A stretch of DNA of 64,000 nucleotides from Marsupella aquatica (GCA_973895155.1 OZ316894.1:13883580-13947579); one strand, 5' to 3'; positions 9,584 to 61,295 are shown, counted from the first letter of the stretch. A program made the numbers and translations. Notes: generated by a model not told the origin, from the sequence alone.

Positions 9584-9638
9584 GGGTGCCTCTGGTTGAG
9601 GTTGTGTTGCAATGGGGGGGGGGTAAGTTGGTTCTTCT

Positions 9639-13857: not shown

Positions 13858-14345
13858 ACTGTAGACAGTACACTGTAGTATGCACACTATAGATCGTACA
13901 TTGTAGCATGCATACTGTAGATCATACACTGTAGCATGCATACTGTAGATCATACACTGTAGCATGCACACTATAGGTCTTGCACTGTAGCATGCACACT
14001 GTAGATCGTACACTATAGCATGCACACTGTAGGTCTTGCACTGTAGCATGCACACTATAGATTGTACACTATAGCATGCATACTGTAGTCCGTGTACTGT
14101 AGCATGCACTCAGATCATACACTGTAGCATGCATACTGTAGATCGTACACTGTAGCATGCACACTGTAGGTCGTGCACTGTAGCATGCACACTGTAGATC
14201 GTACACTATAGCATGCATACTGTAGACCGTGTACTGTAGCATGCACTCTCTAGATCATATACTGTAGCATGCACACTGTAGATCGTACACTGTAGCATGT
14301 ACACTATAGGTCGTGCACTATAGTATGCACACTATAGACTGCATA
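13858..14345. repeat. Minisatellite inside the Gypsy LTR (14-bp units, 28-bp higher order)
   Basis: Alternating CACTGTAGCATGCA / CACTGTAGATCGTA units. Confidence 0.9.
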
Positions 14346-30105: not shown

Positions 30106-30187
30106 TCGTGTAAAGTTGAGAGCCTGTGGTCTTTTTGCCAGATTATATCCTAAGACGGCCCCCAGGTGAGGGGTTAGCTATAGTGTG

Positions 30188-32661: not shown

Positions 32662-34141
32662 ATTTGGGTATGATCAAAATCTGCACAATTACTGATCTAA
32701 GCTCGTCTCTCTTCCGTTTGCATTCCGTTGTTAACACTATCAATATCTATCGTTGAGTTAGAGATCTTCACCTTATTTAATGCTTTGAGAATTTGTGCCT
32801 GGTTTTAAGTAGGCTGTAGTTCATGAAGCCTTGTATCTTGCAGTGGAGGTATTGCTCAGCTTTTCATCCCCGTTGTTGATCCGTTGGTAGTCAACGCGAG
32901 CTCCAACCCCCAGCCGCCAACAATCCAGCTCATATATCTCATCCACACAGCCTGCAATAGTCTCTGAAAGCGCATTCAGCCATATATCCCACACAGCTCC
33001 ACGCCTATCCTCGCAAGCTAAGTCCTTGCTAGTGCTCCTTGTAACTTTGTTTAACTTGCCACAATCCTCATGACTACGCCCCCGCAATCCAAGTTCATAA
33101 ACCCCGAACCCAACAGACTCAATCCCTAAAGACGTTTTGTCACACAAGTCATTCCTCTGTTAACCAAATCTCTCGTGAAGATACTCAATTAAAGGCCTGC
33201 CGCCCAGGATCCACAACCAACAGCAAGCCGGCCAGAAAAGCTAGCCCAGCAGCCGAACAATCCCCCCTTACAATCGATTCCTTAATCAAACCTGTCAGCT
33301 CAGCTCTGCCTCTCTCTTAGCTCTCTCAGCTCTTAATGTCTACTTCAAAGGATCCATTGACGATTTGGTTTTCTTGCATTAGAAGGTTGTCAAGCTTGTC
33401 GCCAGTAGGTTTCCACAGGAATTTAGCCTTGATGAGTTCTCCTCCTAAGAAGGCCGTCTTCTGCAGTTCCCACAGCCAAGCAAGTTCTTATCGCTTGCGG
33501 GCTGCTCTTTCTGATTCTTCTTCTTTGTAAGTCTCAACGTACTCACTTGCCCATTTGAACAGGCATCCCCAAAAATGTGTTGCTTGATTGATGTTGCTCA
33601 TTCCCTTCTCTGGCCGTGCTTGGTAGCTACTTATGTCCCTCCTGTGTTCTCCTCCGTCTCTGACATTCGTTGGCTTCTGCTTGCTTGAGGTGCGAATGTG
33701 AGCCGTCCTTCTTGGTTTGGCTTGCCTTACCCCCCCTGCTCGGTCGATCTGCCCGTTGGTTACCCATAGCCGCCGGTACTTAGTTTGCCCTAACCCTAAT
33801 CGTGTTCCCTACTATGGCGTCCTGACTTCCGGCCTTGGCTCGGGTTCCATAGTCACCCTTAATTGTTTATATTTTCCTTGTTTTTGTTACTATACTAATG
33901 TGTCTTCAACATATCCTCCTGGTTTTACCATTTAAATGGCCTAGTGATTCTTGGCTAGGCATCACAGTTTGCAACCGGACATTCTAGTTGTGCTTGTGTT
34001 GCTGAAAGGGACAAATTGCCCTTAGGGTTAGCATATACATAAGGTTAGGTTGGTCACCACAGATTCTTTTGGTGCTATTGGGTCACCCGATGGACGACGG
34101 ACCGGTTTCACTCGAAGTGGGGCGCAATTTGGCTAGCGACA

Positions 34142-41388: not shown

Positions 41389-41640
41389 TTTTTCAGCCTA
41401 TGCACCACCTGGAAATCATACTCTTGTAACAACAATGCCCATCGTGCAAGCTTCCTTGTAAGCTTGTCAGATTCCATTAACCACTTAAGAGGCTGATGAT
41501 CAGTGATCAAGGTGAAGGGGTTACCAAACAAGTAGCAACAAAAGTGTGCAACAGCCCACACTACTGCCAAACACTCTCCCTCATAAGAGCTATCCTTAGC
41601 CTTTGCTGAATTGTTTGATCTACTGGCATAAGCCACAACA
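41385..41640 (-). pseudogene. Gypsy RNase H, C-terminal half
   Basis: VAYASRS, EGECLAVVWAV, LITDHQPL, LARWALLLQEYDF. In frame with RT once the LINE is removed. Confidence 0.92.
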
Positions 41641-43980
41641 TAGTGAAGGCTTGGTTTGACGAGGATTGTGCTAGAGCAAGGATGCAAGCAAGATCACATT
41701 CAAGGGAAAAGAGACTTTTGGCATTCACTATGTACAAGAACTTCATCAAACACAAGAAGAGGTGCTTCTTGAAGAGTCATCAACAATCACTATGTGAGGA
41801 GTTCATCAAACATCCAAAACGTTTTTGGGAGAGAATGCAATCAGGCAAGACTACTCCCCCCTTGGATCACCAGGACCTGGTAACCTATGTCACATCCTTG
41901 TATTTCTTTCCAGATGCTAGTGGCATGCCTTTGCCCCTTGGGGACACCATTCAGTTTACAGAGAGGGAGGTGAAGGTGCATCTTTCCCACATGCAACATG
42001 GGAAAGCTAAAGATCTGTTGGGCCTGAACTTGGAGCTTCTTTTGTGGGGAGGACCCTCTTTACTAACAAACTTGGTGCATGAGTTGAATCAAGCAATGGC
42101 TTTAGGTTTACCTAAAGCTTGGATGACCAGAAGAGTGGTGCCTATCTTCAAGGCAGGCAACAAGGACGATGTGCACAACTACAGAACCATCATGGTAGGC
42201 AATACTTTTGCTAAAGTTTTGGGAGGACTACTTGAAGCCAGATTAAGCTCTTGGTTGGAGAGTGAGATGAAAAGGGCACCTTCACAAGCAGGTTTTAGGA
42301 GAGAATTCAGCACTATGGATCACATTCTCTGCTTGAGGGTGTTGTGTGAAAAGGCCAAATCTCCACATAAACCATTATTTTGCTTGTTTGTGGACTTCTC
42401 CAAGGCCTTTGACAAAGTTTCCCGATCCAAGCTTTGGGATAGGATGGTGGAGTTGGAAGTGCCTGAAGAGCTCAGGTTGGCTGTTTCTAAATTGTACCAA
42501 GAAGTGCGCATCAAACTTTCAAAGGAAACCTCTGAAGAAATCTGGAGCACTCTTGGGGTGATCCAAGGTTGTCCTCTCTCACCAACTCTCTTTGGCATCT
42601 TCATTGATCAGCTACACAACATTTTGGAGGAGCATGGTGGAGTTGGCACTCAATTGGGTAGGTTTGTCCTCCAACTTCTTATATTTGCAGATGATGTGGT
42701 CCTACTTGCTCATGCTCAAGAAGCTTTGCAAAGACATCTCAATGCCTTGGAGGAGTTTTGTCAAGCAACAGGGATGGTAGTCAACCTCAAGAAGACCAAG
42801 TGTTTGGGCATTGGCACACGACAAAATCCAGAGCTCTACTTCCAAGGGAATCTGGTGGAATTTGTGAGGACCTACAAATACCTTGGGGTGGAGTTCTCTC
42901 AAAACTTGAGTTGGGCCTCATGTGTAAAATCTAGGGCTGCCAATGGGTACAGAGCTTTTTATGCATTCATGAACAAATGCAAAAGAGCTGGTCTACACAC
43001 TTGGAGGTTAAGGAAACATCTCTTTGGAGCTTTGGTGAAACCAGTCATTCTTTATGGAGCACCAATTTGGGGAGCAGGTGTGTCTAAATCTGGGTGGCAA
43101 CAGATTGAGGGGCTGCAAAAGCTATTTCTTGAGATGGAGCTTGGGATCAAGTCACAAACCCCATATGCACTTACACTTGCAGAGGCAGGCTTGTTTCCTT
43201 TGGAGGTGGAGGCACTCTTCCACACACTCAAATACATCATGCGTGTAAGAGAGTTGGAGGAAAACAGATTTCCTTTTCATGCCTTGCGCTCATCTTCAGC
43301 TAAAGGGTGGTATGCAGATGTGTGCAGGTGGGCCCATGCTTGGGATTTTCCTGAACATGAATGGCCAACACACCCAACCAAGCTAAGAGCAAAACTTGAG
43401 CAAAAGGCTTTGCACAAACTTTGGCATGAACCTAGCCCACGGCAGCAATACTACATGAGAGATGTGAACCCCATGAAGAAATATCGAGAACAAGAATACT
43501 TATCTAGCACTATCTCAGTACAACTTAGACAACTTATTGCTCAGTATAGACTAAGCTCACACCACCTTGAAGTAGAACAAGGGAGATGGAAGGATATTGA
43601 CAGGAAAAAGAGGGTTTGTCAACTATGTGATAGCTCTAGTATAGAGAATGAATATCATGTATTCATTGCTTGCAAGTTTTATGAGGGGGTTAGGATGGCA
43701 TCTCAAATCTTGGTGAAAGATTTGTATGCATTGTTTGGTCTGCCCCCTCAGCAACTTGGAAGATATATCTTTGCGGTGGATAGGGAAAGGAGAATAGGTT
43801 TGGAAAATCTTTCAGGGCTCTCTAGGTCCATAGTTTCTTTGAGGACATAGTTGTCCTCTTCTGAGCAATCTCTTTTGGTTGCTCTTTTCTTTGATTGCAT
43901 TGTACTTTACTTTTTGTGGCAGCTCCTTTGACTTTCATGGTCCCGGAGCTTATAATACATTACCATTACCATTACCATTA
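41641..43980 (+). mobile_element. 5'-truncated RTE-X-like LINE with (CATTAC)n tail
   Basis: Splits the Gypsy RNase H between EFV and VAYAS. Imperfect TSD CCACAACA (41633-41640) / CCATAACA (43981-43988). About four CATTAC repeats at the 3' end. Confidence 0.85.
41643..43850 (+). CDS. Non-LTR reverse transcriptase, uninterrupted 735 aa, endonuclease missing
   Basis: NYRTI, QAGFR, FVDFSKAFD, GVIQGCPLSP, LIFADD, YKYLGV, and C-terminal RLSSHHL...CQLC...ENEYHVFIAC. Confidence 0.9.
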   Translation: MKAWFDEDCARARMQARSHSREKRLLAFTMYKNFIKHKKRCFLKSHQQSLCEEFIKHPKRFWERMQSGKTTPPLDHQDLVTYVTSLYFFPDASGMPLPLGDTIQFTEREVKVHLSHMQHGKAKDLLGLNLELLLWGGPSLLTNLVHELNQAMALGLPKAWMTRRVVPIFKAGNKDDVHNYRTIMVGNTFAKVLGGLLEARLSSWLESEMKRAPSQAGFRREFSTMDHILCLRVLCEKAKSPHKPLFCLFVDFSKAFDKVSRSKLWDRMVELEVPEELRLAVSKLYQEVRIKLSKETSEEIWSTLGVIQGCPLSPTLFGIFIDQLHNILEEHGGVGTQLGRFVLQLLIFADDVVLLAHAQEALQRHLNALEEFCQATGMVVNLKKTKCLGIGTRQNPELYFQGNLVEFVRTYKYLGVEFSQNLSWASCVKSRAANGYRAFYAFMNKCKRAGLHTWRLRKHLFGALVKPVILYGAPIWGAGVSKSGWQQIEGLQKLFLEMELGIKSQTPYALTLAEAGLFPLEVEALFHTLKYIMRVRELEENRFPFHALRSSSAKGWYADVCRWAHAWDFPEHEWPTHPTKLRAKLEQKALHKLWHEPSPRQQYYMRDVNPMKKYREQEYLSSTISVQLRQLIAQYRLSSHHLEVEQGRWKDIDRKKRVCQLCDSSSIENEYHVFIACKFYEGVRMASQILVKDLYALFGLPPQQLGRYIFAVDRERRIGLENLSGLSRSIVSLRT

Positions 43981-43988
43981 CCATAACA

Positions 43989-45142
43989 AACTCATTCCCC
44001 TCATGATCCTTTTGAGTCTGCACTGCTCCAAGTCCTACTCCACTCCAATCAATGTGTAGCTGAAATGGTCTGCCTGAAATGGGTCTTCTCAAAATAGGGG
44101 ATGATGCCAACCTTTGCTTCAACTCCTGAAAGGCATGCTCCTGGTCATCACCCCAAATCCATTCTTGATCCAACTTAGTGAGTATGGTCAAAGGTTTAGC
44201 AAGCTGGCTAAATCCTTTAACATACCTCCTGTAGTAGCTCGCCAATCCCAAGAATGCACAAACTCTACTCACATCAGTAGGACAAGGAATCTGTGTAATG
44301 GCCTCCACTTTAGTCTGCTGTACACCCAATCCCCCTAGGTATATAGTGTGGCCCAAATACTCAATCTGGTCTTGGAAGAACTTACACTTGCTAGGATGGA
44401 GCTTCAACCCATGTGCTCTCAATCTCTCCAACACAATCTGCAAGTGCTGCTGATGTTCTTCTACAGTAGAAGAATAGACCAAAATATCATCAATATAACA
44501 TCTGACAAAATCCAAACCTACAAGGATTTGATCCATGACTCTATGGAACTCAGCTGGTGCATTCTTCAACCCAAATGGTAAGAATAACCACTGATACAAA
44601 CGATCTTTGCCATAAGAATCAATCCCCCAGAATGTTGTCTTGGACCTGTCAGCATGCCTAATTGGAAGTTGATGGTACCCTGCCCTTAGATCCAATGAAC
44701 TGAAAACCTTTGCATGCCCCACAGCATCAAAGATCTCCTCAGGTGTGGGCATGGCATATCTATCAGATTTTGTCTGGCGATTAATGGGTCTGTAATCACC
44801 ACACATGCGCCTATCTGTGTAATTGCCATGCACATCCTTCTTGGCTGGCATCACTATGGCAGATGCATACTCCCCATATGAAATCTCCACCAATCCAGCC
44901 TCCAACAAATCTTGAGTTTTGCTTTGAATCAGAGCTCTCTCCATGTCACTGTAACGGTATGGCCTACGAAAGATTGGCGCATCACTAGCCAATTCAATCT
45001 GAATACCAGGACCCTTTAATGTCCCCAAATCCTTCATGCAAAATGCAAAACAATTCCAGTAACTCTTTAGGAATTGATGCATGCGACGTCTCTCCTCCCT
45101 TGTCAACTTAGGGCCAAGTTGTGGTTCCCAACTCTCCACCAA
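43989..45142 (-). pseudogene. Gypsy reverse transcriptase and RNase H start
   Basis: RMCGDYRPIN, LDLRAGYHQ, PFGLKNAP, YIDDIL, FLGLASYYRRYV. Confidence 0.95.
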
Positions 45143-45389
45143 ATCCCTAATATCTTTTTGTAGAGTAGAAGAGATAGCCGATGATTGCTATTTAGCAGTA
45201 GATTGAGCAGTCCCTTCCTGCTCAACAATCTGTCCAACCTTGGCCAATCCTGCCATAGGTCCATGGACCGTCTGCTCGCCCCCAGCTGTGGTCAGTACTG
45301 TCTTAGTGGACCGCAAGCTCACCAAGGGACAATTATTAATTCTAGCAAAGCGCACCCGCAACTGTTCAGCTACTCCCAAGCTAATAATC

Positions 45390-46345
45390 CAAGTCAAACA
45401 ATTCAGATCCATTGCTTGACCAAGAACCTGGCGCCACAAACCCTCTGACATAGAGGCAACTGCAGTGGTGCCAGTCAAAAATCCCATAGCACGCTCCCTC
45501 GCATCAGTAGTAGGCTCCAATAACTGCTGGAGAGCTGTGTCCCACACAAGTCCAGGGCCACTTGCTCTGAATGCATATGAAGCAGAGTGGCTTACAAGAG
45601 TGGGTAATGCACAACGTGGGCGTCCAACTGCATTGACCACTGCCAATGGAGGTCTATCAGGTTGGGTCACACCCTGTGCACGACACCCTGGATCCAAAAT
45701 ATCATCCACCACTAAGGCTGGTGAGCATGGAATGTTGTCAAATGCGCGCTTCAACACCTCACATGGGATCAAATTAGTCCACTACAAGCGTGGACGATGT
45801 GCACGAGAACCCACACGTGCAACATCCAACAACACAGCAGGTCCAATCCAAGACCTCACCTGGTGAACACTAGCAACAATCCGACTACGATCATCACCTA
45901 ACAATGGCACATTCTCCAAAATGTATGCTGGAGACTGTGTTTGATGTAGCTAGAGATGACGCAGCACCCGTAACATCTCCCAAAACAATGCAGAGCATGG
46001 ATCATGAAGTCCATGCCCAACGCCAGCTCTAGATTGGCCCTGACATGGCCAACCAACAATCACCAAATCAATGGGGCCAACACGATGCAGATGATCCACC
46101 CCCAGCAATGAAATATTAGCAGGTAGTGCATGCTGATAACCACGAACAACATCCACTGGCAACAACTATGGATATCTATCCACCAACATAGCCACATGTC
46201 GCAATGAGACCCTCTGTGCTGTCTCATCTGTCTCCATATACAAATAACAACGCACATGAATTCCTGCCTAGAGAACATCAGCCAATCTAGTGCTAAGCCC
46301 ACCAAAAAGATCCAACAAACAAATACCCTCCGGTGGATACTGCCA
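45390..46345 (-). pseudogene. DNMT3-like C5 cytosine methyltransferase domain (copy B, complete motif set)
   Basis: LLDLFGGL, GPIDLVIVGWPCQG, YILENV, RAHRPRL*WTNL, RERAMGFLTGTT...RQVLGQAMD (motifs IX-X). Same reading frame as the RT ORF. Confidence 0.92.
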
Positions 46346-46599
46346 AGCAATAGAAGTGGTATCCAATGGTGAAAGAGTCACAGGTCCATCTGCAAGAGAC
46401 TGCTATGGTCCTGACTGTGGTGTAAAAGCATGACGCCATGCATCATGTACCAATCGTGCGGTTGCTTGTGGCAAGGCCTGTGTAGTGCCCACACTGGTGG
46501 CACAACACTGCCAACAGGTAATCCTCGCATGATATGAGACTCCTCCAATGATCAGCCTATTCATTAAAAGTGTATTTTCTTTTGTTCACAAATCAGTCC

Positions 46600-46682
46600 T
46601 GAAATGTACACTTTTATGTCCCCAAATGTACACTTTACGAAGCCCAAATGTACACTTTTTGATACCTAAATGTACACTTTAT
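46600..46682. repeat. Left subterminal repeats AAATGTACACTTT
   Basis: Four copies, followed by a TA-rich microsatellite at ~46697-46780. Confidence 0.85.
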
Positions 46683-46970
46683 AGGCCAAATCTTATTAGT
46701 ATTATATTAATATATTATATTATATTATAATAGTATTATATTATTATATTATATTATATTATAATAGTATTATATTACTTATTAGTTCACAAAGAACCAT
46801 GGGATAGAGATCATATTTGTAAAAACATTTCCACACAAAGAAGCCCAGGCAAGGACCATTGATTGATAATGTGTGAAAATAATTATATACAATTGTGTCC
46901 AAACTCACAATGAATATCCAGGGCTGGCACCCATTTTTACTATCTAATGGGCTTAACATGAGTCAGATAT

Positions 46971-48104
46971 CTAAACAAAGTGCTCCTTAAAATATTTATT
47001 TGAGCACGTGCCTTTGTCTCCTTTACTATCTACCCTAATGTCACGGCTGCAACTCCCTTTATCTTCAGGGAGATGAAATTTGGTGGTGTTGTTCTTAGCT
47101 GCTATAATCTCCCGCAAAAAGTGTCTGGGATTTTCTCTATACAGACCTGAATATTCGCGTCCTACAAATGATCTAGCAAGTGAGGTGACAAGTGCATCGT
47201 CAAGTTCCACCTCAGGACGTAAGCTACATATACGGTGCTTCACAGCCCAAGGAATCTCATTGCTATTGAGGTCCAGCACACTATGCCTATACTGTGACTT
47301 CCAAATTTTTGCTGCACATCTCTTACTAAGTTGATCATAAGTAATCTCATTTTTTGCCTTGTCTCTCTTAATGTGCAATAGAGACCACTTTGGAGAGTTT
47401 AGGAGAAGATAATAACGAATATCACTTGCATGTGACAGTTTCTCAAGACATGGCCAAAGAATTGTTAGAAGAAAATTGTCTCCACGATTGGCATGCGTGT
47501 AGGGCACTAGAAATAGTCCAGTCATGTTTGGGTTAGCAAATGCCTTCAAGGGGGAGTCATCCACAAGGAGTGTGTTGGTTTCATCATATAGATTTCCAAA
47601 TGCACTCCATACCACCCAAAAATCCTTCAATAGCACATTTGCCTTTCCATTTGTAATGTCACGCCTTTGAATGCCTGTGTCAAAGGCTTCCACCTGTGTG
47701 AATACAAACTTCAGTTTCAACCGCTCCTCAATTGTGAACATCATGTTCAACATTTTCACTGTTCGCGGCATCCCAGCACATGTCCAAATTGCAACGTCAA
47801 ACCGGTCAAAAACCAACTTTAGAAACTCATGGAGCCCTGGCCTCTCTGTATACATGCGACTAGTTCCATTTGATCTATCCCAATGCACTCCACTTGAGGT
47901 GACAATATTTCTAGATGTGCCCTTGCTTTGGAATTCAATAGAATCCCAAAGTATTTTATTAAGGTCCAAAATCAGCAACTTCCACTTGACGGGACCAGGT
48001 CTCGATTCTGCAAGTGCACCAAACACCACTCTCAGAGAAAAGACCAAAAGTGAACTTTGGATTAGGATTGTCTCAGTCCAAAAATACAAGACAATGGCTG
48101 ACAA
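46971..48104 (-). CDS. FCP1/NIF-like HAD phosphatase domain protein (cargo)
   Basis: KLLILDLNKIL (DxDxT-like position), ERPGLHEFL..VFDRFDVAIWT, LLKDF, NTLLVDDSP.KAFANP. The true start is probably spliced. Confidence 0.8.
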   Translation of the reverse strand: MSAIVLYFWTETILIQSSLLVFSLRVVFGALAESRPGPVKWKLLILDLNKILWDSIEFQSKGTSRNIVTSSGVHWDRSNGTSRMYTERPGLHEFLKLVFDRFDVAIWTCAGMPRTVKMLNMMFTIEERLKLKFVFTQVEAFDTGIQRRDITNGKANVLLKDFWVVWSAFGNLYDETNTLLVDDSPLKAFANPNMTGLFLVPYTHANRGDNFLLTILWPCLEKLSHASDIRYYLLLNSPKWSLLHIKRDKAKNEITYDQLSKRCAAKIWKSQYRHSVLDLNSNEIPWAVKHRICSLRPEVELDDALVTSLARSFVGREYSGLYRENPRHFLREIIAAKNNTTKFHLPEDKGSCSRDIRVDSKGDKGTCSNKYFKEHFV

Positions 48105-48147
48105 AAAAGAAAATTAACCTACATACCATTTTTAGAAGCCTCACAAT

Positions 48148-51100
48148 GGGCCTGACCTCCGTGACAGGAAACAGTAAACAGGAAAAATCATAACAGGAAA
48201 AATCAAGGAAGATAACAGGAGTTTTTGCGCTCACGTTGTCATAATGGGATAAGTTTACTAGCGTCGGGCGCTAGCCAAAATACAATGGTACGTTTTCATA
48301 TTAGTTGCAAGGGTTACAATTAGCAAATTACATCACATGTTAGGCAAACAAAATGTGCATGGTTTATTGGAAAATATGTAATTTATATTTTTTCAGTGGA
48401 TACTTAACATTTTGGCAAGGGTTATCATTAACACCCCCTCCCGACGCTAGCCAAAATACCATCATAGTCTTTACATAGTGACAAGATTTACAATTAATAT
48501 ACAACAAATTCATATGTTTGTTGAACGCTTACAAAAATGCAATATACTTCTCCTATAATCCAAGTGCGTATTTCTTGTATTTGGCCAAATCTGATCCTCT
48601 TTAAATTCTAAGGAGGAGACTTAAAGTGTACATCATCATCAAGTTTATTGAAAGAGTGCTTACGTGAGGGGCACAGTCTTGGCCAAAAAAATCTTCATTT
48701 GGAAGATTTTTTAATCTAATTTCTAATTAAATCAAACCTTCAATATAGGAAATCTCATGGATGTTTTTGTAATTTCTTGAACATAAATATCAATGTATGG
48801 ATATAATTTCATATGGGTAACAAAAATTTATGAACCCATGTGACGGATATACACACAAATGGGATCAAATTATAAAATCAAGTGTGATTTGAATCTTTAT
48901 TTCGCAAGAAAATCTGGGACAATATTAATTTGACTAGTGTTTAAATTGTCTTTTTCAAACCACAAACATCATTATATTTTTCAAGTTGTTGATTCTATAT
49001 ATGTGGGTTGTTGTTATTTTCATAAAATTTCTTAGAATTACTTCTAAATTATTTTCATAAGAAGGTGATGTGCTTAAGAAAATGAGAAAAGTTTTGGGCT
49101 ACAATAGGATTAGAGTTTGACGGTCTCTAGTGACCCCAAAATATCTAGTATAGAACAAGGAAAATATGATAGTAATGCCATACTCTACTATACAAAATTG
49201 GCATAATTTGATGTGTTTAAAGGTCATGAAGATTAAACTATTGGATTAAATCTAGGAATAAATCCCATAATAGCTCCAGATGCAAAAGAAATTGAGACAA
49301 ATTGAATATATTTATATGATATAATCCATAATTTAGTACCTAATTGCTATCTCAATAGTCCTAAAATCTTGTGCAGAATGTATAATAGCACTAGGCGCTA
49401 TCATAAATCATATTTATTTGACGTATTGATTGATAAAAGTAATAGGTGCTATCATCAAATGACACATTTATGTGTAAAACATCCATCATTTTTTAAAGAA
49501 AATTTGGCAGAAGAGTTAATTACAAGAAATAATAAACATAAACCCATACAACAAATTTAATAAAAAAGATACAAATGTTACTAGCGTCGGGCGCTGGTAA
49601 TATCCTACTTGGCTTGACCCCTCTAAGAATGATATTATTTTAAGAATTTTTATACAAAAATTGAGCTAAAATTAGTATAAAACATTTAAAAATGTTACTA
49701 GCGCCGAGAGCTAGTAATATTCAACTCACCAAGACACTCCAAAATGACACTATTTTGAGTGTCTTTATGAGTAAAAATTAAGCAAAAAAGGATATAAAAA
49801 TGAATTAACATTACTAGCGCCGGGAGCTAGTAATGTCACACCCACCTAGACCCTCCAAAATGACACTATTTTGAGTGTCTTTATGAGTAAAAATTAAGCA
49901 AAAAAGGATATAAAAATGAATTAACATTACTAGCGCCGGGAGCTAGTAATGTCACACCCACCTAGACCCTCCAAAATGACACTATTTTGAGTGTCTTTAT
50001 GAGTAAAAATTAAGCAAAAAAGGATATAAAAATGAATTAACATTACTAGCGTCGGGAGCTAGTAATGTCACACTCGCTTAGACCCTTTAAAATAACATCA
50101 TATTGAGTATATTTGTGAGAATTTTTTTAGAAAATTGGGCTATAAAAATGAATTGACATTACTAGCGCCGGGAGCTAGTAATGTCACACTCGCTTAGACC
50201 CTTTAAAATAACATCATATTGAGTATATTTATGAGAACAAATTTTGAAAATTGGGCTATAAAAATAAATTAACATTACTAGCGCCGGGAGCTAGTAATGT
50301 CACACTCGCTTAGACCCTTTAAAATAACATCATATTGAGTATATTTATGAGAAAAAATTTTGAAAATTGGGCTATAAAAATAAATTAACATTACTAGCGC
50401 CGGGAGCTAGTAATGTCACACTTGCTTGGACCCTCCATAATAGAACCATTTTGAGAAATTTTTAAGAGAAATTTTTCGCAAAAAATGTAGAAAACAAAGG
50501 AACATTACTAGCGCCAAAAGCTAGTAATGTGACTTTGGCCCAAACCCTCTAGAAAAACATTTTTTTGAGTCTGTGACCTTTAATTATTTACTGATATACC
50601 GCCTATTTCACTAGTAGTATTACCGTTTTATCTCTTGTGTTTGCTATTGTTGTTAAATGCACCAAAGGATATTTTAGAAGGTCATGTAATTTTGCAAGTA
50701 ATAAAGAAATATCTATGTAAATGAGACCTCACCAAAGAGGACTTTTTGTTGGCATTGAGTGCTACTATGGTAATATGAACAAAAATGACTATAGCCTAAA
50801 GGATATATTTTGATAAGCGCCAGGCGCTGATATAAATTTTGGTCAAAAGCAATGGCTCTAATTATCAAATTTATTATAGTAGTTTGTGGTGCTACTATAT
50901 TATATCATCATTTGTAATGTTTTAATGGCTATATTATCACTAATATTATCCAATGTCACGGCTGCTGACCTTGTTACTAGAAAAAAAGAACATAGCATCC
51001 TCTAATGGTCTAAGGCGGTTCAATCAAAATTTACAATATGTCAAACTCTTCATCATTGGTTAGAGCATTCAATGACCAGAGTGTATTGCATTTGATAGCA

Positions 51101-51599
51101 AGAGTATATCTTTTTGCTCACATCACTCTACGTGAGGATGTTAACCTTTGATCAATCCACACATTTACAATCTTCTAGGTAGTACTTTGGAAGATGCATG
51201 GAACCCTTGATATGATGTGCTCTTTTATCGATAGTTTGTCACTACTAGACGTCCAAATCAAAGTACGATTCAATATAATTTAAGTTAGTTTGAGCATGAT
51301 AATTAGGGTGTCTAAAGGGGAATAAACTTTTGTGTTATAATCTTTATATAGTTTTGACGTCGTGCACGATAGTTTTGAGCCTTCATGTGTAGAAAATCTT
51401 TGGCGCTAGTAAAGATTTATGTCTATAATAATTGTATCTGTTACATATATTACAGTTGCTCAGTTCAAATTGTAGTGTAATTTTGGTCCCTAAAGTGGGA
51501 ATTTTCTTTCGGCATTGCGCACAAAACTCCTGTTATCTTTGACCATTTTTACTGTTATGATAATTCCTGTTTACTTTTTCCTATCACGGGGAAAAACCT
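48148..51599. mobile_element. Non-autonomous Mutator-like element (3.45 kb)
   Basis: 9-bp TSD CCTCACAAT (48139-48147, 51600-51608), ~80-bp imperfect TIRs (CCGTGA.AGGAAA.AGTAAACAGGAA...GATAACAGGAGTTTT), AT-rich with no long ORF. Confidence 0.85.
49570..50570. repeat. 116-bp tandem repeat, about 9 units, palindromic core
   Basis: ACATTACTAGC-GCCGGGA-GCTAGTAATGT at 49808, 49924, 50040, 50156, 50272, 50388 and 50502, with variants at ~49575 and ~49692. Confidence 0.92.
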
Positions 51600-51707
51600 C
51601 CTCACAATGTGTAGACGGATATGGAGACTTTAATTGGTGAGCGCATTCTGTGAGACCGAGAAGTATTTTAGATTGATATGAATAAATACAAAGTCAAAGG
51701 CTGAATT

Positions 51708-54700
51708 TCATTCCGAAATAAGAGATCCGTATTCATCAATAATCATGTCAGCACCAAGCTCCTGTTGGATTTCAAAATTGACATCTGAAGTACTTTGTTC
51801 TACCCAATAAGGTGAAGTCCAAACAGGAGTTATCAACCCCAATTCTCCACTCTTATACTCCTCCTTATTGAGAATTGAAGGAGCAGGATCCAATGATATT
51901 TCTTGGCCTCAATTTGGCCCACTTTTCCACACGTAACATCGTGCGTCGCATTCCAATGACCTCCATCCAGTTGATCCAACTCTATTTCCTTTCTTTTTTG
52001 AGAGCGGAAGGACAATAGGACTCCCCGAGTGTGAACGAACGAACACCAATTTTTCATCAGAAGCTGAAAAGAGTGTGTCAGGACAAGTTGAAGCACCTGC
52101 CTGGTTGTCAGCAGCCGTTGATGCATTTCCTCCTGGATTGATTGGAATGTCAGGCAATCCGCCAGTCTCCCCCTCCGTCTCCCCCCGAGTCAATTCTTTA
52201 GTTTCAGCTTCATTTGAATCTCCAAGCCTCATTGCGCCTTCATTGATCAGATTGGTTGAAGAAAGATGATCAAACGTATCAACCCTTGCTCCTTCCAGTT
52301 GCTCCATCTGTCCTCCCGGCGTTGTTGGATTGGGATCATCCTTGTCCAAGTTATCATCAACTTGAACTTCATTGGGCCCCGGAGGGATGTCATCTAAACA
52401 AGATGAACGGTTTGGTGCAAGTCCAATATCATCATCTACATCGTAAGGCTCACCTTGACCAACACGGTCATCCAAATTCTTGACATATGCCTCCTCTGAT
52501 GCCCCTATGCCTTCAGCCACTTTGTCAACAACATCTTCAGACTCAGAACCATCGGATTCAACAACGACAGCTACAGTTGCAACAGTGGTAGCCCATTGTC
52601 GAGAATTTTCAGCAAGTGATTCACAATGAGCTTTAAGTGAGGGAACTCTCTTGCAAAGGTAGGAAGCAAAAGCTTCCACAAAATGCCTCTCGGAGTGAGA
52701 GTCACAATAAACAAAGCATTCCCTATCGCAAAAAAATGATGTCTTCATGACTTGGCCACCGGAGAAAAAATCTAGAACCAAATCTCCCGGTTCTGACAAG
52801 GATTCAATAATCCTTCGGATCATCCGCGTGGGTTTGGCATGAGGATTAACCCACCCTCCGCGACTGCCAACTGTCTCAAATCGAGGGGCCATATTCATAA
52901 TTTTGACGGCCTCTTCCGGGTCCAAAACCGCTTTTAGGTCGTCGTTTTGTGTCCCCCCATCTGATTCCTTAGCCTTCCCCTTTCCCTTGTCGATCTTGCA
53001 TACTTCGTAATCAACATCCTTTGCAGTATACAAGAATTTTGGCTTTGGATAGTTGGGCTTGAAAACTTCATTCCAATTGACGTCTTCATCTTGAGAAATC
53101 CCCGCAAAGATAACTTCTTCAATCCCCCCACCCCAACATGAGTCATGAGGGTGCGGTTGATCATCTCAAGAATAACTCCCATACTCAATGTGAATGGTCA
53201 AAGCTTTCTCTTGTCCCAGTTTACGAAGGGCACCATGGACATTCAATGCAAGTTGTCCAGGATGAACTATTATCGTCAACAATCATGGGATTTTGTGGAA
53301 GCTCCACAATTTATTCAAAGAGAACAAGAATCTCTGCTTCAGTCCATTGTTTTTGCGGAAGCCGGCTAAAATCAACAATGGCAAGAGGGCAGGTCAGAGG
53401 AGCTTCTTGCAATGACTCTGGATCAATGGTCTTCATGAGATCGTCGCTAAAAAATGTAGCCCATGGTAGGGTCCGAGAACGTGATCCTCCGCCAAATTTC
53501 TGGCAGTATATATCATCTAGGCGGAATGCCAATGCCGTCGGCAAGATTGCGCTCTCCCACGTATGATTTGGTTTTAAAAGGTTGGCAAGATAGACCTCGC
53601 CAGCGGCTCTTCGACACCTGCTGAACTCTGAATCAATTGCTAGCATAGGAAGAACCTCCACTACTTTCCCCCAATTAGTATTTGCCGGGAAATTCACCGC
53701 ATCCTTGGTGCAATAGTAGTCTTCAATAAGGGACTTCAGTTTTCGCATGATCTTCACATCTTTGGCCAACTCCTCTATAGATGGCATGTCTGATTTATTA
53801 GAGGCATCTTTCTTTAGCAATACCTTTCTTGACTTCACCCGCGTCAGTATTCTTGTGATGTCTCGTTGTGAGATCAACTCACCATCAAAACAACGACACA
53901 TGGCAACAGTAATTGCTTTTTCAGACTTCTCATTTCCTTCTACCCCAGCTCCATCGGGAAGTTTCCCATCCAACCACAACTGGCATACCAAACTCCATAA
54001 CTCAAAAAGAGCATCGTCCGCAAACAGTAACCAATAAACATTTCGACAATCTTTTCTTCCCATGGTCATTCTTGCAAGAGCCAACCAATCCTACAATTGC
54101 AAAGGAAAGTCTGTTAGTTCTCCATAACTCAATTGTTTGATAGCACTCAGGTGCGGACTGAGACCATCCCACTCCAACACAAAACTAGACAGTATTAGTG
54201 GAAATATTCTATTGAATGTGCATGATTTAGTTTGGACTGGGACCATCCCAGTCCAGAACAAAACTAGACAGTATCAGTGGAAAAATAATCTATTGAATGT
54301 GTATGAATCCATTTGGACTGGGACCATCCTAGTCCAACGCAAAACTAGGCAATATCAGTGGAAATATTCTACTGAATGTGCATGAATCCATTTGGACTGG
54401 GACCATCCCAGTCCAACACAAAACTAGACGATATCAGTGGACAAAGATTCTACTGAATGTGCATGAATCCATTTGGACTGGGACCATCCCAGTCCAACAC
54501 AAAACTAGACGATATCAGTGGACAAAGATTCTACTGAATGTGCATGAATCCATTTGGACTGGGACCATCCCAGTCCAACGCAAAACTAGGCGATATCTGT
54601 GGAAATATTCTACTGAATGTGCATGAATCTACGGTATTGTACCCATCAAGCAGTAACACTTTGTACCTGAAATTTTTGATTGTCTTGAGCGTTTGTTTTG

Positions 54701-55272
54701 TTGTCGCCATGTTTTGGCCGGCTAGGTTTTCCACATTCCACAAATTGTCGCCTAGCATGAACGACTGTATCTTTGAAGCATGACTGAAACACCATCGTGC
54801 TATTGATCGCATTAGATCGCATTGAATGCTCAACTAATATTGACGATGGTGTTCAATGAGATAATATTCTTGACTTTCAAAATTCCAGCTTTTTCGCCAA
54901 TGCTGTCAGCTTGGCATCCTTGTTTGCCCATTCTCAAATCCATCTGGCTGCTCTAGCCGAATGTTGATCGCTAATGGCAAGGAATTGAACCTCGCCCTTT
55001 TTCATGGCTGCTACAAAGTCCCTCCTATCTGATTCTGTGTTGTCATACTGCATTAGGTTTCTATGTTTTGTAGTGTAAGGAATCAAGTCTGCTATGTGTG
55101 GTTCATGCCCCAGATTTCTTATCATGGAATTGGCCACCTCCTTTACATGGTCTGCATTCAACATTCTGTAACAGAGTCTTGCCGACGCAAGGAAAATACT
55201 ATCTACAGGAATAGAAAATATTGAATTGATCCCAAACGTATAATATTGCTCCATTTGTTGCTATGGTGTAGC
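51708..55272 (-). pseudogene. Spliced cargo gene: ParB/Srx-like N-terminus plus N6A/N4C methyltransferase-like domain and acidic tail
   Basis: Exon ~55272-54667 (R.LNADHVKEVANSM...FLAISDQHS). GT-AG intron ~54666-54091 joins KFQ|DWLALARM in frame. HAKP..IRRIIESLSEPGDLVLDFFSGG at ~52755-52845. Confidence 0.7.
54150..54630. repeat. ~79-80-bp tandem repeat (about 6 units) with hairpin TTGGACTGGGA-CCA-TCCCAGTCCAA, intronic
   Basis: Units are directly visible and lie between the GT donor (~54666) and AG acceptor (~54091). Confidence 0.9.
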
Positions 55273-55344
55273 CTAAAGTTTGCGTGGTCTTAAGGCAGAC
55301 CCTAATGTCTACATACAGTTTCATGAAATAATGGAACCTTATAT

Positions 55345-55680
55345 TTGAGTCCAACTTTGGATTAGGATGGTCCGAGTCCAAGTTTGGATTGGGATGGTCC
55401 GAGTCCTAGTTTGGACTTGGATGGTCTAAGTCCTAGTTTGGATTGGGATGGTCCGCGTCCAACTTTGGATTAGGATGGTCCGAGTCCAACTTTGGATTGG
55501 GATCATCCAAGTCCAAGTTTGAACTTGGATGGTCCGAGTCCAAGTTTGGATTGGGATGGTCCGAGTCCAGGTTTGGACTTGGATGGTCCAAGTCCTAGTT
55601 TGGATTGGGATGGTCCGAGTCCTAGTTTGGATTGGGATGGTCCTAGTCCAACCTTGGACTGGGATGGTCCCAGTCCAAAT
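55345..55680. repeat. 27-bp tandem repeat (about 12 units) TTGGATTGGGATGGTCCGAGTCCAAGT
   Basis: Quasi-palindromic units. The last one, TTGGACTGGGATGGTCCCAGTCCAA, is the exact reverse complement of the intronic hairpin. Confidence 0.9.
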
Positions 55681-55796
55681 CCAGAATCGGAGGATCGTAG
55701 TCCAAATCCAAAATTGGAGGATAGTAGTCTGAATCAAAATTTGCATGAGTTTGGTTTTAATCCATTTTTTCAGTGTGCAGGATAATAGGAAAAGGA

Positions 55797-58700
55797 TGTC
55801 TCAAAGGTTTTCTAGGGGCGATGATGTTACCTTGACAATCGATGGTTACGACGTTGGAAATGGGACAGTTCAAAAGACAGATCCGCGAGAGAGTGTTCAA
55901 AATATTGTGCTGGGAGAGAATCGAATTGGGGTTCTCATTGAGAAGGCCTTTGGTGAGACTAGGAAGCTCCCTTTTCCAATGCCTAGGGCAGAAAATCTTC
56001 ATGATGCCATTGACTCATGTGTCATCTGGGATATGTCATGTGCATATCGATCTGCGGATAAGATTACTCAAAAACGCATCAGTATTGGTAGTTGTTTGAC
56101 TCGAAAAGATAACAACATCCATAATTTTGCAAATGTAGAGGAGGATGCTTTGACCACCCTAAGGCCAGGCGATGAGGTTGAAATATTTATCTCTGGCCAT
56201 TGTGTGGCCTTTGGAGTTGTTTTCAAGATCGATCCAATGGAGAGATGTCATAACATATTACTCGGTGAGTCTCGGGTTAGTGTAAAAGTCACAGATGTGA
56301 TTCATGGTAGTAAGACTTTACCTTATGCACATGGTGGAGCTGCAACAATTGAAGAGGCAAAGGGCTCCTGGGTTCTATGGGATGTGGTTGACGTCCACAA
56401 TAAAGTATGGAATGTTGATATTGATGGGAGCAACAAATCTTCCTCTAAGAAGCAGAAGGACAAGGCAAATTTTGTTTCACAGTCTTGTTCGGCGAACACC
56501 ACGGACACTAAGTGTGACTATTTTCATCGGGCAAACTGGATGTCAGAGTTGGTTGAACTCTACATTGGTTTGGATCGAACCAAAATGGTTGCCACTGGAA
56601 CGATCACTGTCCCTCAAGTGACAGCAGCAGTTGATGATGAAATTCTTGGTGATGACCATGTTGGGATTGTTGTGAAAGATGTCGTGGCAGCACAATACTT
56701 TCCCAACATCCACAAGGGAGTAGTGATTTTGATTCGATGGCGGATTGATTCAACAAAACTAGTTGCAAATGGAAAAAATTTGTCAGACATTTTGGTGGAA
56801 GGTTCTGAGAGGATGGAATCAATGGATAGGGATGAACTCAATGCGGATGTAAGTGATAGAGGAGTACTGCGTTCAAGGCCGTACAATTTTAACAAGAGGA
56901 ATCAAGTAGATCCGAATGAAAAGAAGAGGAGGTTGTTGGAAACCAAGGCAATTTCAAAAACAACAGAGGTGTCAATTGATGACGTGAAAAGAGAAAATTG
57001 TTGCAAGTAAAAATGTTGTCTCATTATGCCAAGGGAAAACATCGAAGATATTAGGATGGAATTTCATGGGATGTCAAGCGAGTCAAAAACGTCACACATT
57101 TTCAACCTCTTTCACTATAGAGAGGATGATGTTCGTGATAAGGGACACCATGTTCTTAAGGGTATGGTCGTATGCAGACATGCATTTGCAATTATCCACG
57201 GTTTTAGCCACACCAAATATTATGATTACAAAAGGAGATATGTGGAGGGTTGAAAAATTGGGTTCCATGGCAATACGGGCTTGATGAAAACAAGGGCAAA
57301 TACCTTGCATGCACGAGCTCTGTTGGAGGCTTTTTTGACTCGAAATGCAGAGCCCATGCCTCATATGCCTTATGGAGGGACACATGGGACAGACTCTACT
57401 GAGTACCGTCTTCCGACGTGTTACAAGAAGCTAGAGATTCTGGAAGATGTGAGAACAAAGATGAAGGAAGAAGGGCTTCCTCCTGTCACAGAGAATACTC
57501 TCTACAAGATCTGGAGCAACTCATTTGCAAACTTCAGTTTTCATAAAGATGGTGCATTTGCCAAGTGTACTCTTTGTTGTGAATATAAAACAGTTTGATG
57601 CGAGAAAGAAGGAAAAAAGAACGTGTTGAAATTGAAGAAAAGCGAGCGCAACATCTTCGTGAGCACATGTCACATAGATATGTTTACTACGCTCATCGAG
57701 TGATGGCCAAACAACACCCAGGAAAATATCTTTGCATTATTCATGACAAGATGGATCAAGCAAAGACATGGATTCCAAAAATGGTTAGTACTCCTAAATC
57801 TCTTTCGGGTCATGGAATGCCGCTACCTATTGCTCTCACAGGGATGTTGACCCACGGGAGGGATCCAGGAGTTTATGCACACTTTAGTGTCACTGGCCTT
57901 TGGCCAGGAGATGCTGATTTCACAGTGACATCCTTGGCTAAGTGTCTTCGAGACCTTGAAGAGTACAATGGAGACAAGACAGGTGACATGTTGGATGGCC
58001 TTCATTGGGAACCTCGCAGACCTTTCTTTCAAGCCCTACTTGACTTTGAAGCATTTTTGACGGGTTATTTGGAACCAAAGAATATACCGATGAATAGGTA
58101 TATTGGTTATGAAGATGGAGTTGAGAGTCGGACTGAGACCGTCCCAAACCAACAAGATGAGGATGAAGGAGAAGACATGCAAGGAGAGCAAGGCAGTCCA
58201 TCGTTCAAGCCCTTGCCAAGGCACCTAACATTGCAGATGGATAATTCAGCAAAGGACAACAAAAACCAGACTGTCATGGCATTTTGTAGCGAGCTTGTGA
58301 GTAGAGGAGTATTTGAAACTGTTCAAATGTCTTTTCTAATGGTTGGTCATACGCACGAAGATGTTGATGCACTCTTTTCAAAGGTATCATATCAAGTTCA
58401 GCACAAAGAAGTTGCAACCCTCCTTGCTCTTATGGCAGAGGTATGGGAATGCGAGAGCATTCATCCAGTTCCCAGATTGATACAAGAAGTTGCATCTTAC
58501 AAAGAATATCTTCAAAATTTCAAGGTGAAAGATATTCAAGGTCACTCAAAACCTGTATCATTTCTTTTCTCTATGAGAGATAATGTACCAATATTTCAGT
58601 ACAAGTCCCATGTAAAGCAAGCTTGGGCTCCAGTTGGTGGAAGGTGCATTTGGGCAACAGATCTGACAACAAATTCTCTTCTTTTACCTAGTGGAGAGCC

Positions 58701-59557
58701 CTTAGCTAAATCCATTGGAGAGATACACAAAAAATCTGAAGAGATTATCCCATTTCTTAACAAGTACCTTGATTTTTTGAGAAGGAGTTGCACTGATGAG
58801 ACATCTATAGCATATAAGGAAAGATTTCCTCTTGTGAAATATTGGGAGAGAATTGTGGAGTTGTTGACAAATGGGCTCGCACTAGAAGGGGAGGGAAGTA
58901 CTCAATTTCCCTTGAAAAACAGATTTTGGCCTAAGACTAACCACGGCACTGGTTACAAGGTCAAGCAACCGGAACAAAGTGGTCCTCCAAGTGAAGATGA
59001 GGAGAATGCAGAGATAATGTCTCTTCAAAATGAGGTCTTGGAAGGGATGGAAGATCAAGCAACACCATTTGTTGGATCTCGAGCTGAGAGAGAACAAGGA
59101 CGATGGATTCCTTTACAGGATATTTGTGAAGGAAACTTTGTATTTCTTCGACCCGAGGATGATTGGGAGAATAAAAGTGGTGGAGGTCATTTCTGGTTGG
59201 TGAGAGCTTTGGGTTAATTTGGTGGACCCAAAGCATGAAGTCCCAACTACATCTTCAACAAACCCTTCTCTGCCTCAACAGTATGCTCCAATGTTCCCAA
59301 TTGAATGGTGGAGGCCTAAACACTCTAAACTTGATGTGACTGAGAGTGCGCGGTATCTAAATTGTTTCATGTCCACTAAGACATGGGAACGAGATCCAGG
59401 GTTTGGTGAGAATACTCAACATTGGCAGTATGCAAATTCTGCAATGTATGGTTTTAAATTTGGAATGAAAGAAGAAAACATGGCGGGCAGAGGTTTGAAG
59501 ATCCCTCGAAATGTTCTACAAACTGTCCAAAATTATCTTCAAAGGATGGACAAGTAG
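55797..59557 (+). pseudogene. Sola-like DDE/DDD transposase (~1250 aa reconstructed)
   Basis: ORFs 55745, 57026 and 57281 share a frame, separated by single stops. 57595 and 59219 are frameshifted. Motifs CTLC, IIHDKMDQ, LQMDNSAKDNKN, FLMVGHTHEDVDALFS. Confidence 0.8.
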
Positions 59558-59809
59558 ACTTAGTTGTTAGAAGCTATAATAATTAAATAGATAGTTACTA
59601 GTTTTTATGTAACTAAGATAGTCACTCATTCAAACATAGTAATTTACGTAGTTATTTACTATTCTAATAGTTTTAATTTGATACTATCTCCTCATTTTCT
59701 AAACTTTTGATCATTATATATGAATATGAATGTTTGCTTTTTCTACATAATTAAAAATATTTTTCTATTCATTCATTTCTTTTAAATGATTATAAGAAGA
59801 GTTGGTAGG

Positions 59810-60140
59810 CAAATGTACACTTTTTAGGCCAAATGTACACTTTGTTGCACTAAAAGTTACACTTTTTAGACCAAATGCACTTAAATATACACTTTTTAAG
59901 CCAAATGTATGCATTTTTCACTCAAATGTACACTTTCTAGGCCAAATGTACTCAAATATACACTTTTAAAGTCAAATGTACCTATTTTGATGTTCAAATT
60001 TACACTTTTCATTGCCCAAATGTACACTCTTTGGGCCAATTGTACACTTTTCTATCCCCAAATGTACACTTTTCATTGGCCAAATGTACACTTAATTTTC
60101 CAAGCCCAAAAGTACACTTTTCATTGCCCAAATGTACATA
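59810..60140. repeat. Right subterminal repeats AAATGTACACTTT
   Basis: More than ten variant copies, matching the left-end motif. Confidence 0.85.
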
Positions 60141-60181
60141 AATCAAATAATAATACACTTTTAATGAATAGACTGATAATG

Positions 60182-61295
60182 GTGGAACATCTACTGCATG
60201 CGCATTACCCTCAAGCAAATCATCAGGTCCAACAATTACACCACTGAATGCTGCCAAAGACAATGGTGTGGATTTAGGGCCTCCCACAGGTCCACTAAAT
60301 CTCACTGGCAATTTGCTCAATCGAGCATCTCTTGACTGCCAATCAGGTCTATATGCCACCGATTCCTCCCAAAAATCAAGAATAAATCCCATGGGGTAGA
60401 GCACTGTACATCCCACCAACACATCATATGACTCTGCCTTAGTCAGAATAGCTCGCGCCTGTATCTGTGAGCTATCTATGGTATGACCTTCCTGAATCCT
60501 CAAATCAAGAGGTCTCCTGGTAATGTGCTGTGTAGGTGTAGGTCCCCCCAATGAAGTCTGAATGGGAAAGGGACAATCCTCCAAATCCTCTAGACGCAAT
60601 CTCAATCCACATATGGCAGACTTACCCAACATCAAGGGTTGAGCACCAGTATCCAGTAACACTCTCTCTGGTTGGTATACTACCCCAAAAGGCCCAACTA
60701 ATCGGAAGATATCACTCCAATTATCCAATGACACAACACTAGGTTTAAACATAGTCCTCTCAAACGTAGGGCGTGCTGGTAAATCCACCAACCTCGCTGC
60801 TGTTGCATGCCATGTCTTACTAGTAGCAGTAGGTGGCATGGTCTTCATTGCTTCAACACTGCAAGCTGTTTCTGCATGGGAAGCAACCACTGGAGTGTCC
60901 TCATAGAGTGTAGCTGCCAATCTAAACACTTCTGTAGGACCAGCTCCCAAGTTCAGCATGTCTGTCACTGAAAATAATGGGGTGCTTACTATGGCAGTAG
61001 CCGCCCCCAGCAGGGTACCTGTCATCCCTACTACATCACTACCTGATTCTGCCAACTTACCCACGCCAGGGTTTGTCCGAACCGGGTTCATAGAGGCAGT
61101 CTGAACTGTCTTTGACAATGTAAAAGACTGAGGAAGCTTTGTCTGTTGACGTGCATCCCCCCTCTATGGATCTAGCTCCACTACTGCTCCTCGGGGCTCA
61201 AGAGCTTTGGCTGCCCCACGTGTCAAAGCTGCTGATGCATCAATATGTGCAGTGCCATACATGAATCCCATGGTGGCAAGGTCTCCATCAGCTCC
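60182..61295 (-). pseudogene. Gypsy gag C-terminus and aspartic protease (copy B)
   Basis: RVLLDTGAQP...YDVLVG in ORF 60009..61118. Confidence 0.88.

Follow-up and report, generated by a model that had tools for sequence, protein, structure and literature searches.

An apparently undescribed transposon gene family of land plants that pairs a ParB-like domain with a predicted methyltransferase fold lacking the catalytic motif

The window analysed here is a 64,000-nucleotide stretch of the Marsupella aquatica genome (GCA_973895155.1 OZ316894.1:13883580-13947579). Its minus strand carries a broken two-exon gene, which the first-pass annotation, made from the sequence alone, had described as a transposon-borne combination of a ParB-like and an amino-methyltransferase-like domain. 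The placement in a transposon was borne out: terminal inverted repeats (TIRs), a target duplication and a transposase region enclose the gene (Table 1). From left to right, the element consists of 22-nt repeats, a NIF-like frame (minus strand), a nested insertion, the ParB-methyltransferase-like gene (minus), a 27-bp array and the transposase region (plus).

Table 1. Features of the host transposon and of the ParB-methyltransferase-like gene, in window coordinates
Feature	Position	Strand	Contents or evidence
Host TIR DNA transposon	46551..60177	.	13,627 bp = 10,176 bp own sequence + nested insertion; TIRs, AATG duplication, contigs of other copies
Left TIR and 22-nt subterminal repeats	46551..46689	+	
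FCP1/NIF-like HAD phosphatase-like frame	46971..48113	-	Pfam NIF E=7.2e-15; tblastn to P0069, P0119, P0132
Nested non-coding insertion	48149..51599	.	10-bp target duplication 48139-48148 / 51600-51609, 67-nt inverted arms, 116-bp array
Exon 2	51708..54090	-	Helical region, methyltransferase-like domain, acidic linker, small conserved C-terminal domain
Motif X-I (exon 2)	52847-52755	-	
Motif IV DFSR (exon 2)	53373-53362	-	
Phase-0 GT-AG intron	54091..54666	-	81-bp tandem array 54155-54629
Exon 1	54667..55251	-	ParB-like domain (SDQHS 54972-54958) and start of helical region; 3 in-frame stops
27-bp tandem array	55347..55678	.	Between the divergent methyltransferase-like and transposase genes; palindromic core as in the intron array
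Broken transposase region	55733..59557	+	N-terminal part, CxxC and HxxxH motifs, DUF7869 catalytic region (HDKMDQ, QMDNSAKDNKN, GHTHEDVD)
Right subterminal repeats (22-, 30-, 71-nt periods) and right TIR	59807..60177	+	

The window copy of the gene is defective. Six stops and one frameshift interrupt it (51708-55251, minus strand): besides the stops of exon 1, exon 2 has stops at 53311, 53166 and 51909 and a frameshift near 53277-53282, and the terminal stop codon lies at 51710-51708. The position of its start codon (55251) is uncertain, with related sequences reaching 67-247 residues further upstream. The motifs named by the first-pass annotation could all be located on the minus strand, namely NPHAKP...PGDLVLDFFSGG, LAIVDFS (its Asp at 53373), IEEVIFAG and, in exon 1, R.LN..HV...LAISDQHS. 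The sequence also supports the clean GT-AG intron proposed there: it has a CAG/GT donor, a branch-like ACTAAC and an AG acceptor, both boundaries are in phase 0, and annotated relatives are joined likewise. The annotated relatives P0002 and P0024 are joined at the window's intron point (tblastn), as are Calypogeia models, several short family open reading frames (ORFs) stop or start there, and the matches of related subfamilies break off near the intron borders, at 54097 and 54664-54665, as loose contig ends. Exon 1 itself matched P0157 (68-246, at 36%) and P0024 (1-159, at 50%) by tblastn.

Relatives were collected by a profile search, which returned 212 proteins at E up to 0.001, 150 of them listed, and by word searches, which matched 1 of 1350, 4 of 7993 (query included) and 8 of 7997 candidates. 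The 24 proteins looked up comprised nine Riccia sorocarpa gene models, two from Calypogeia fissa, one from Ceratopteris richardii and 12 without a species. Riccia gene models are often partial; intact family ORFs are found at 20-47% identity, those of 901-1219 amino acids (aa) at 30-47%. In P0157 (1009 aa) and P0162 (1219 aa), one uninterrupted ORF runs colinearly with the two exons, and therefore the ParB-like and methyltransferase-like domains do share one polypeptide. The methyltransferase-like protein continues in frame into a NIF domain in three Riccia models (P0069, P0119 and P0132), the order being that of the window, and P0069 matches both families. Two profile matches, regarded as unrelated or outgroup sequences, were set aside: P0126, which has Ig-like repeats, and P0143, a canonical bacterial methyltransferase.

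Searches in other collections returned little. A Pfam scan of the most complete members, P0157 and P0162, gave no match. Locus scans yielded one locus among 178 metagenome candidates (1802 bp, too short for neighbours), two among 145 viral contig candidates, both ordinary DPPY enzymes, and none among 38 from prokaryotic genomes. No match was found by tblastn with P0157 in 50,697 phage records or with P0165 in plasmids, and PHROGs and NCBIfam scans gave weak DNA-methyltransferase matches only and no ParB. A 284-kb viral contig supplied an ordinary beta-class methyltransferase with DPPY (L002:4455-5186) as a reference. Three unnamed Atlas clusters (330-368 aa) resemble the methyltransferase-like domain at 0.95-0.96, and other unnamed clusters, with 66-119 members, some of them cnidarian or molluscan, resemble the ParB-like domain; judging from such clusters, the family may reach animals.

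The beta-class amino-methyltransferase fold suggested by the first-pass annotation is supported by a model of P0157, built on 144 rows (P0157, 140 of the 153 proteins P0001-P0153 and three window frames), in which residues 221-750 mostly have a predicted local distance difference test score (pLDDT) of 75-98. The top Foldseek matches of this model are M.PvuII, M.RsrI and CcrM. Residues 463-736 align to CcrM with Z 17.0 and a root-mean-square deviation (rmsd) of 3.4 over 214 aligned residues (VIA), and the model reaches Z 16.1 against M.MboIIA and Z 15.0 against rotifer N4CMT (VIA). In a wide structure search of 48,161 chains, the top 20 were all permuted amino-methyltransferases, and row 21 dropped to Z 5.5. 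The fold predicted for the intact product is a circularly permuted Rossmann fold in which motif IV precedes motifs X and I. Sequence profiles point to the same class: one of the 11 frames scanned, of 418 aa, matched Pfam N6_N4_Mtase (E=1.1e-6, above cut-off) over motif X-I only, and the family profile matched M.RsrI at E=3.1e-7. Local hhalign likewise reaches motif X-I only, and its global mode puts the motif IV Asp on the DPPY Asp at low column confidence.

Within this fold, the catalytic motif is missing. We counted motifs over 112 rows (121 aligned domains minus P0143 and near-duplicates), many of which are fragments or paralogues and non-independent. Motif IV is complete in 56 rows, with Asp in 51, then Phe or Leu in 52, then Thr, Ser, Ala or Gly in 50, and then Arg in 33 or His in 7. 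The family consensus is D-[FL]-x-[RH] (DFSR in the window); Pro-Pro occurs in 0 of the 56 rows, and [DNSH]PP[YFW] occurs nowhere in 165 family proteins. The first-pass annotation had seen no canonical DPPY or SPPY in the window; the motif is missing from every relative too, and we rejected decay of the window copy as its cause. Motif I is of a DFFSGG type, one residue short (FxGG in 50 of 62 rows, FxGxG in none). Motif X reads [NH]PxxK, and its Lys668 is kept in 62 of 64 rows. The first-pass reading of this region was right in that motif X-I is present, but NPxxKP aligns to HPTQKP, so that Asn, and not the His of HAKP, is the equivalent of the canonical His. An Asp at motif II spacing is found in the window and in 21 of 60 rows, and a D/N at the motif III position in 36 of 47, in a register not taken from coordinates.

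In amino-methyltransferases, the target base is positioned by the motif that defines them (PMC4738411, Box 1), and changing SPPY to APPA in N4CMT abolishes activity (PMC8885841). On these two grounds, loss of methyl transfer is favoured, and the motif test, applied to aligned sequences, puts the family outside the active N6A/N4C writers. Binding of S-adenosylmethionine (SAM) may persist, because few columns are as well conserved as those of the motif X Lys, motif I and the motif IV Asp. A parallel implied by the first-pass annotation, with the active eukaryotic writers of N4-methylcytosine (4mC), rotifer N4CMT and Marchantia DN4MT1, was not supported, since both carry SPPY and the present family does not. 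The gene was also considered, and rejected, as a DN4MT1 orthologue.

For the ParB-like domain, the first-pass assignment is supported by a structural model. The Atlas model of Riccia P0153 (residues 95-270) resembles ParB_N clusters at a template modelling (TM) score of 0.50-0.57 in five of nine rows, two of the nine meeting the naming bar. The same N-terminus reaches TM 0.58 against DndB and 0.66-0.73 against unnamed clusters, one of them mostly molluscan, and its nearest named neighbours by features are cnidarian and fungal DUF3723 clusters (0.95-0.96). The N-terminus is predicted to have the ParB N-terminal fold; neither Pfam scans of window frames and relatives nor sequence searches of the PDB gave a ParB match. 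The ParB/Srx motif is GxxR or GxHR, with a phosphate-binding Arg. Its counterpart here is S-x-[QA]-H-S, typically S-G-Q-H-S, in which the His and Ser are invariant in 12 of 12 rows and the Ser replaces the Arg in all 12. The SDQHS segment picked out by the first-pass annotation does lie in exon 1, but its Asp is private to the window copy, the contigs of four runs reading Gly. Downstream, the helical region (225-456 of P0157) is modelled confidently. Among viral proteins, the best structural match is a phage protein of 494 aa that carries the name ParB/Sulfiredoxin; the alignment covers 713 columns at high rmsd.

The NIF-like frame beside the gene shows a similar change. DxD is the usual motif I of HAD phosphatases, and this frame has DLN in the window and DVE in Riccia. 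Taken with the motif changes of the methyltransferase-like and ParB-like domains, all three enzyme-like domains are therefore altered yet conserved. A possible donor near 48125 and an acceptor near 48005 suggest an upstream exon for the NIF frame.

Other copies of the element were examined through six sequencing runs, all behaving as DNA; among the joints listed for them, none crosses the intron, which says nothing about expression. Four of these entered a detailed comparison of the stretch 53140-54960, for which 40 of 90 differing places are shown. The four lesions that could be checked, as the first-pass annotation had advised, are missing from other copies: the stop at 53311 reads Tyr (75-100% of depth) and that at 54855 Arg (100%) in four of four runs, the stop at 54879 reads Arg at 39-100% of depth, and contigs of all four runs have two extra bases at 53276-53278, the frameshift site. 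The other three stops lie outside the compared stretch or are not among the places shown. Thirty-two of the places shown are coding. In the window-private class (at least 85% of run X1 depth), 6 of 16 are synonymous, and among the rest, which differ between subfamilies, 10 of 16 are (p=0.007 against an assumed 30%), giving a weak hint of selection on the reading frame.

The gene belongs to a multi-copy plant DNA transposon. The TIRs of the element are 26 nt long and identical at 25 of 26 positions (ends at 46551 and 60177), and the AATG duplication (46547-46550 and 60178-60181) flanks both ends; at 60178, contigs arriving from other sequence continue the right flank. Many short divergent contigs cover all 30 element bins in four of four runs compared, with 8367 divergent contig records in run X1. 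We treat the element as a unit because of its ends, the even cover of the gene and ORF start, and the shared palindrome; no contig spans the whole element. In runs X1 and X2, contigs with a 46589>59882 joint represent a short, internally deleted, non-autonomous derivative.

The catalytic region of the transposase corresponds to Pfam DUF7869 (E=2.3e-44), and its N-terminal part matches TNP1/EnSpm-like sequences weakly (Pfam Transposase_23, E=0.07); PDB sequence searches with the transposase gave no match. The 4-bp duplication and the motif layout, compared by eye, suggest a Sola-like enzyme. The N-terminal part (55733-57010) seemingly contains three similar beta-rich repeats, and a frame at 1048-1983 holds a similar-looking domain, perhaps a fragment of another DNA transposon.

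The nested piece at 48149-51599 was rejected as part of the host element, having its own 10-bp duplication and being skipped by the contigs of other copies. These show the empty-site joint 48138>51600, and the piece has roughly tenfold lower depth. Its array comprises 6.7 units of 116 bp with a near-palindrome in each, it has no long ORF, and we take it to be Mutator-like. The host element in turn interrupts a Ty3/gypsy-like retroelement, whose reverse transcriptase (RT)/RNase H lies to the left (43907-46550) and whose aspartyl protease-like frame lies to the right (60178-61163), both on the minus strand. Elsewhere in the window, frames at 8091-12071, 26165-32673 and 41619-43850 resemble, by eye, a Copia-type polyprotein and two RT genes of the long interspersed nuclear element (LINE) type, the last of these apparently inserted between the RT and integrase of the gypsy-like element. 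A 28-bp tandem array (14-bp sub-period, about 17 copies) lies at 13858-14343, outside the host element.

We compared the family with known systems. Beta-class N6A/N4C methyltransferases (CcrM, M.RsrI, M.MboIIA and M.PvuII; PF01555) share its permuted Rossmann fold, its order III-IV...X-I-II and Z values of 15-17, whereas the family lacks PP[YFW], has FSGG for FxGxG, shows 7-15% identity, is fused to ParB-like and helical domains, and is eukaryotic with an intron. The ParB-methyltransferase fusions of phages and prophages (ParB-Tls loci) also have a ParB-like domain N-terminal to an amino-methyltransferase (PMC4738411); the present family differs in having both catalytic motifs altered and in sitting in a plant TIR transposon. 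Rotifer N4CMT and Marchantia DN4MT1a/b likewise place a prokaryotic-type beta-class fold in a eukaryote, and liverworts host both kinds, but these are host genes with SPPY and demonstrated 4mC activity; a chromodomain accompanies the fold in N4CMT, and DN4MT1 carries no further domain, where our family has the ParB-like one. The DAM-like domains of DIRS and long terminal repeat (LTR) retrotransposons are prokaryotic-type amino-methyltransferases on eukaryotic mobile elements, with DIRS1 copies judged inactive (PMC4738411), yet they belong to another methyltransferase class and to retroelements, and ParB has 0 occurrences in a 2026 preprint on them (bioRxiv 10.64898/2026.05.21.726589).

Other parallels concern the transposon and the ParB-like domain. 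VANC of VANDAL is also a transposon accessory gene, accompanied by tandem repeats in the non-coding parts of its element (PMC5735166), but the likeness is an analogy only, Pfam scans having given no shared domain. Fungal DUF3723 proteins, the nearest named feature neighbours of the ParB-like domain and a term that occurs in papers on Starship transposons, show no sequence-level match to PF12520, and no methyltransferase domain is shown for them. Sola transposons, one of which (Sola1) is recorded in Physcomitrella, share the 4-bp target duplication and TIRs, and D...D/NxxxxxKN...H-x(3,4)-D resembles the Sola2 alignment by eye, not by profile (PMC3627910). However, the AATG of the single site does not fit the AWWT target, and the available parts of that paper report no accessory gene of the ParB-methyltransferase kind for Sola.

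Our preferred reading, held tentatively at a little below an even chance, is that the gene is the broken copy of a transposon accessory gene whose intact product is likely a non-catalytic, DNA-binding pseudoenzyme acting on the palindromic arrays of the element. The family-wide loss of the catalytic motif makes DNA binding the likelier role than methylation. The intron array consists of 81-bp units with a 25-bp palindrome in each, and the palindromic core has 28 strand-wise matches, all within the element, against 0.05 expected by chance; its presence in both arrays would fit a dimeric binder. These palindromes recall parS sites, the targets of ParB. We infer that the gene descends from a prokaryotic or phage ParB-methyltransferase fusion. 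Methyl transfer would have been lost in the family, a dimer would bind the 25-bp palindrome of the intron and divergent-promoter arrays, and this binding would keep both genes open for transcription against host silencing by 5-methylcytosine (5mC), as VANC does for VANDAL. VANC targets sit in tandem repeats (PMC5735166), and DIRS1 elements offer a case of inactive methyltransferase domains on transposons (PMC4738411).

Several observations weigh against this reading. The strong conservation of Lys668, DFFSGG and the motif IV Asp is a pattern that an active enzyme would also show, and the arrays could instead be bound by the transposase. The ParB part of the P0157 model is poor (pLDDT mostly <50), so that the fold rests on the Atlas model of P0153, with a whole-protein pLDDT of 0.47. 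The helical region gave no helix-turn-helix match (best Z 5.1, in a whole-model search; the region alone was not searched). Linkage of the gene to a transposase is shown for the window alone, and the two synonymous classes (10/16 and 6/16) are alike by Fisher's test (p=0.29) in a small, tool-filtered sample.

An active amino-methyltransferase with D-[FL]-x-[RH] as a new motif IV, acting on the element's DNA (4mC or N6-methyladenine, 6mA) or on RNA or another amine and blocking or evading host 5mC silencing, seems unlikely to us. RsmH and METTL15 make m4C and are not known to carry PPY. Conservation within the domain is highest in the columns of the SAM site, an Asp at motif II spacing and a D/N near motif III persist in the window and in close relatives, and an Atlas match at 0.88 to a Myxococcota PF01555 cluster offers a lead only; eukaryotic clades related to myxobacterial enzymes have unusual strand-4 motifs (PMC4738411), and adenine methyltransferases of retrotransposons accompany raised 6mA (bioRxiv 10.64898/2026.05.21.726589). 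Against this, none of the 56 rows retains either proline or the stacking aromatic, the motif II Asp is scarce among relatives, and one fern-containing subfamily has a further degraded motif I. Motif I is also shortened and has neither the Ser nor the Thr with which N4CMT binds the carboxylate of its cofactor (PMC10406627). A more elaborate version strikes us as improbable: an old transposon family of seed-free land plants would have acquired a ParB-methyltransferase of phage type and remodelled the active site to D-[FL]-x-[RH], the enzyme finding parS-like palindromes and writing 4mC or 6mA, with the FCP1-like domain tying it to RNA polymerase II. If true, this would be the first transposon-encoded counter-methylation writer in plants.

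The divergent pairing with the transposase and the subterminal repeats at both ends would also suit a non-catalytic transposition cofactor that binds the 22-nt repeats or the transposase and helps end pairing or target choice. TnpA of CACTA and the Myb protein of Harbinger are models for such a cofactor, and ParB-type proteins bridge DNA. We nevertheless consider this role doubtful, as the transposase region has its own, weakly matched TNP1-like N-terminal part and its catalytic region gathers far more related contigs than the gene does; related elements may therefore move without the gene. That the gene is merely a passenger, a captured host gene or relic of no benefit to the element, would agree with the dead window copy and the many partial Riccia models. 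The intact ORFs, the conserved intron position, the conserved adjacency or fusion to NIF in Riccia and the nine separate Riccia loci among the 24 proteins looked up speak, however, for long selection and for spread as a mobile cassette, which leaves the passenger explanation with a slim chance.

Set against these alternatives, the DNA-binding pseudoenzyme remains our preferred reading of a transposon gene family that is real and apparently undescribed, and that fuses a ParB-like domain to a beta-class methyltransferase fold without the catalytic motif. Literature searches, whose coverage excluded subscription journals and Repbase, gave no description of the family and DUF7869 in 0 papers; an earlier mention may exist. 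Few prokaryotic amino-methyltransferases are known from eukaryotes, and those few attract close attention; in the papers examined, the transposon-borne ones are either Dam-like domains in retroelements or enzymes encoded by virus-borne Mariners. The present domain is of the beta class, is fused to a ParB-like one, belongs to a plant DNA transposon and has been conserved between liverworts and a fern. If the product is active, its catalytic motif would be new and it could account for 4mC or 6mA in the genomes of plants; if it is a palindrome-binding pseudoenzyme, transposon anti-silencing would have a second route, unrelated to the first, whose target sequence is already at hand.

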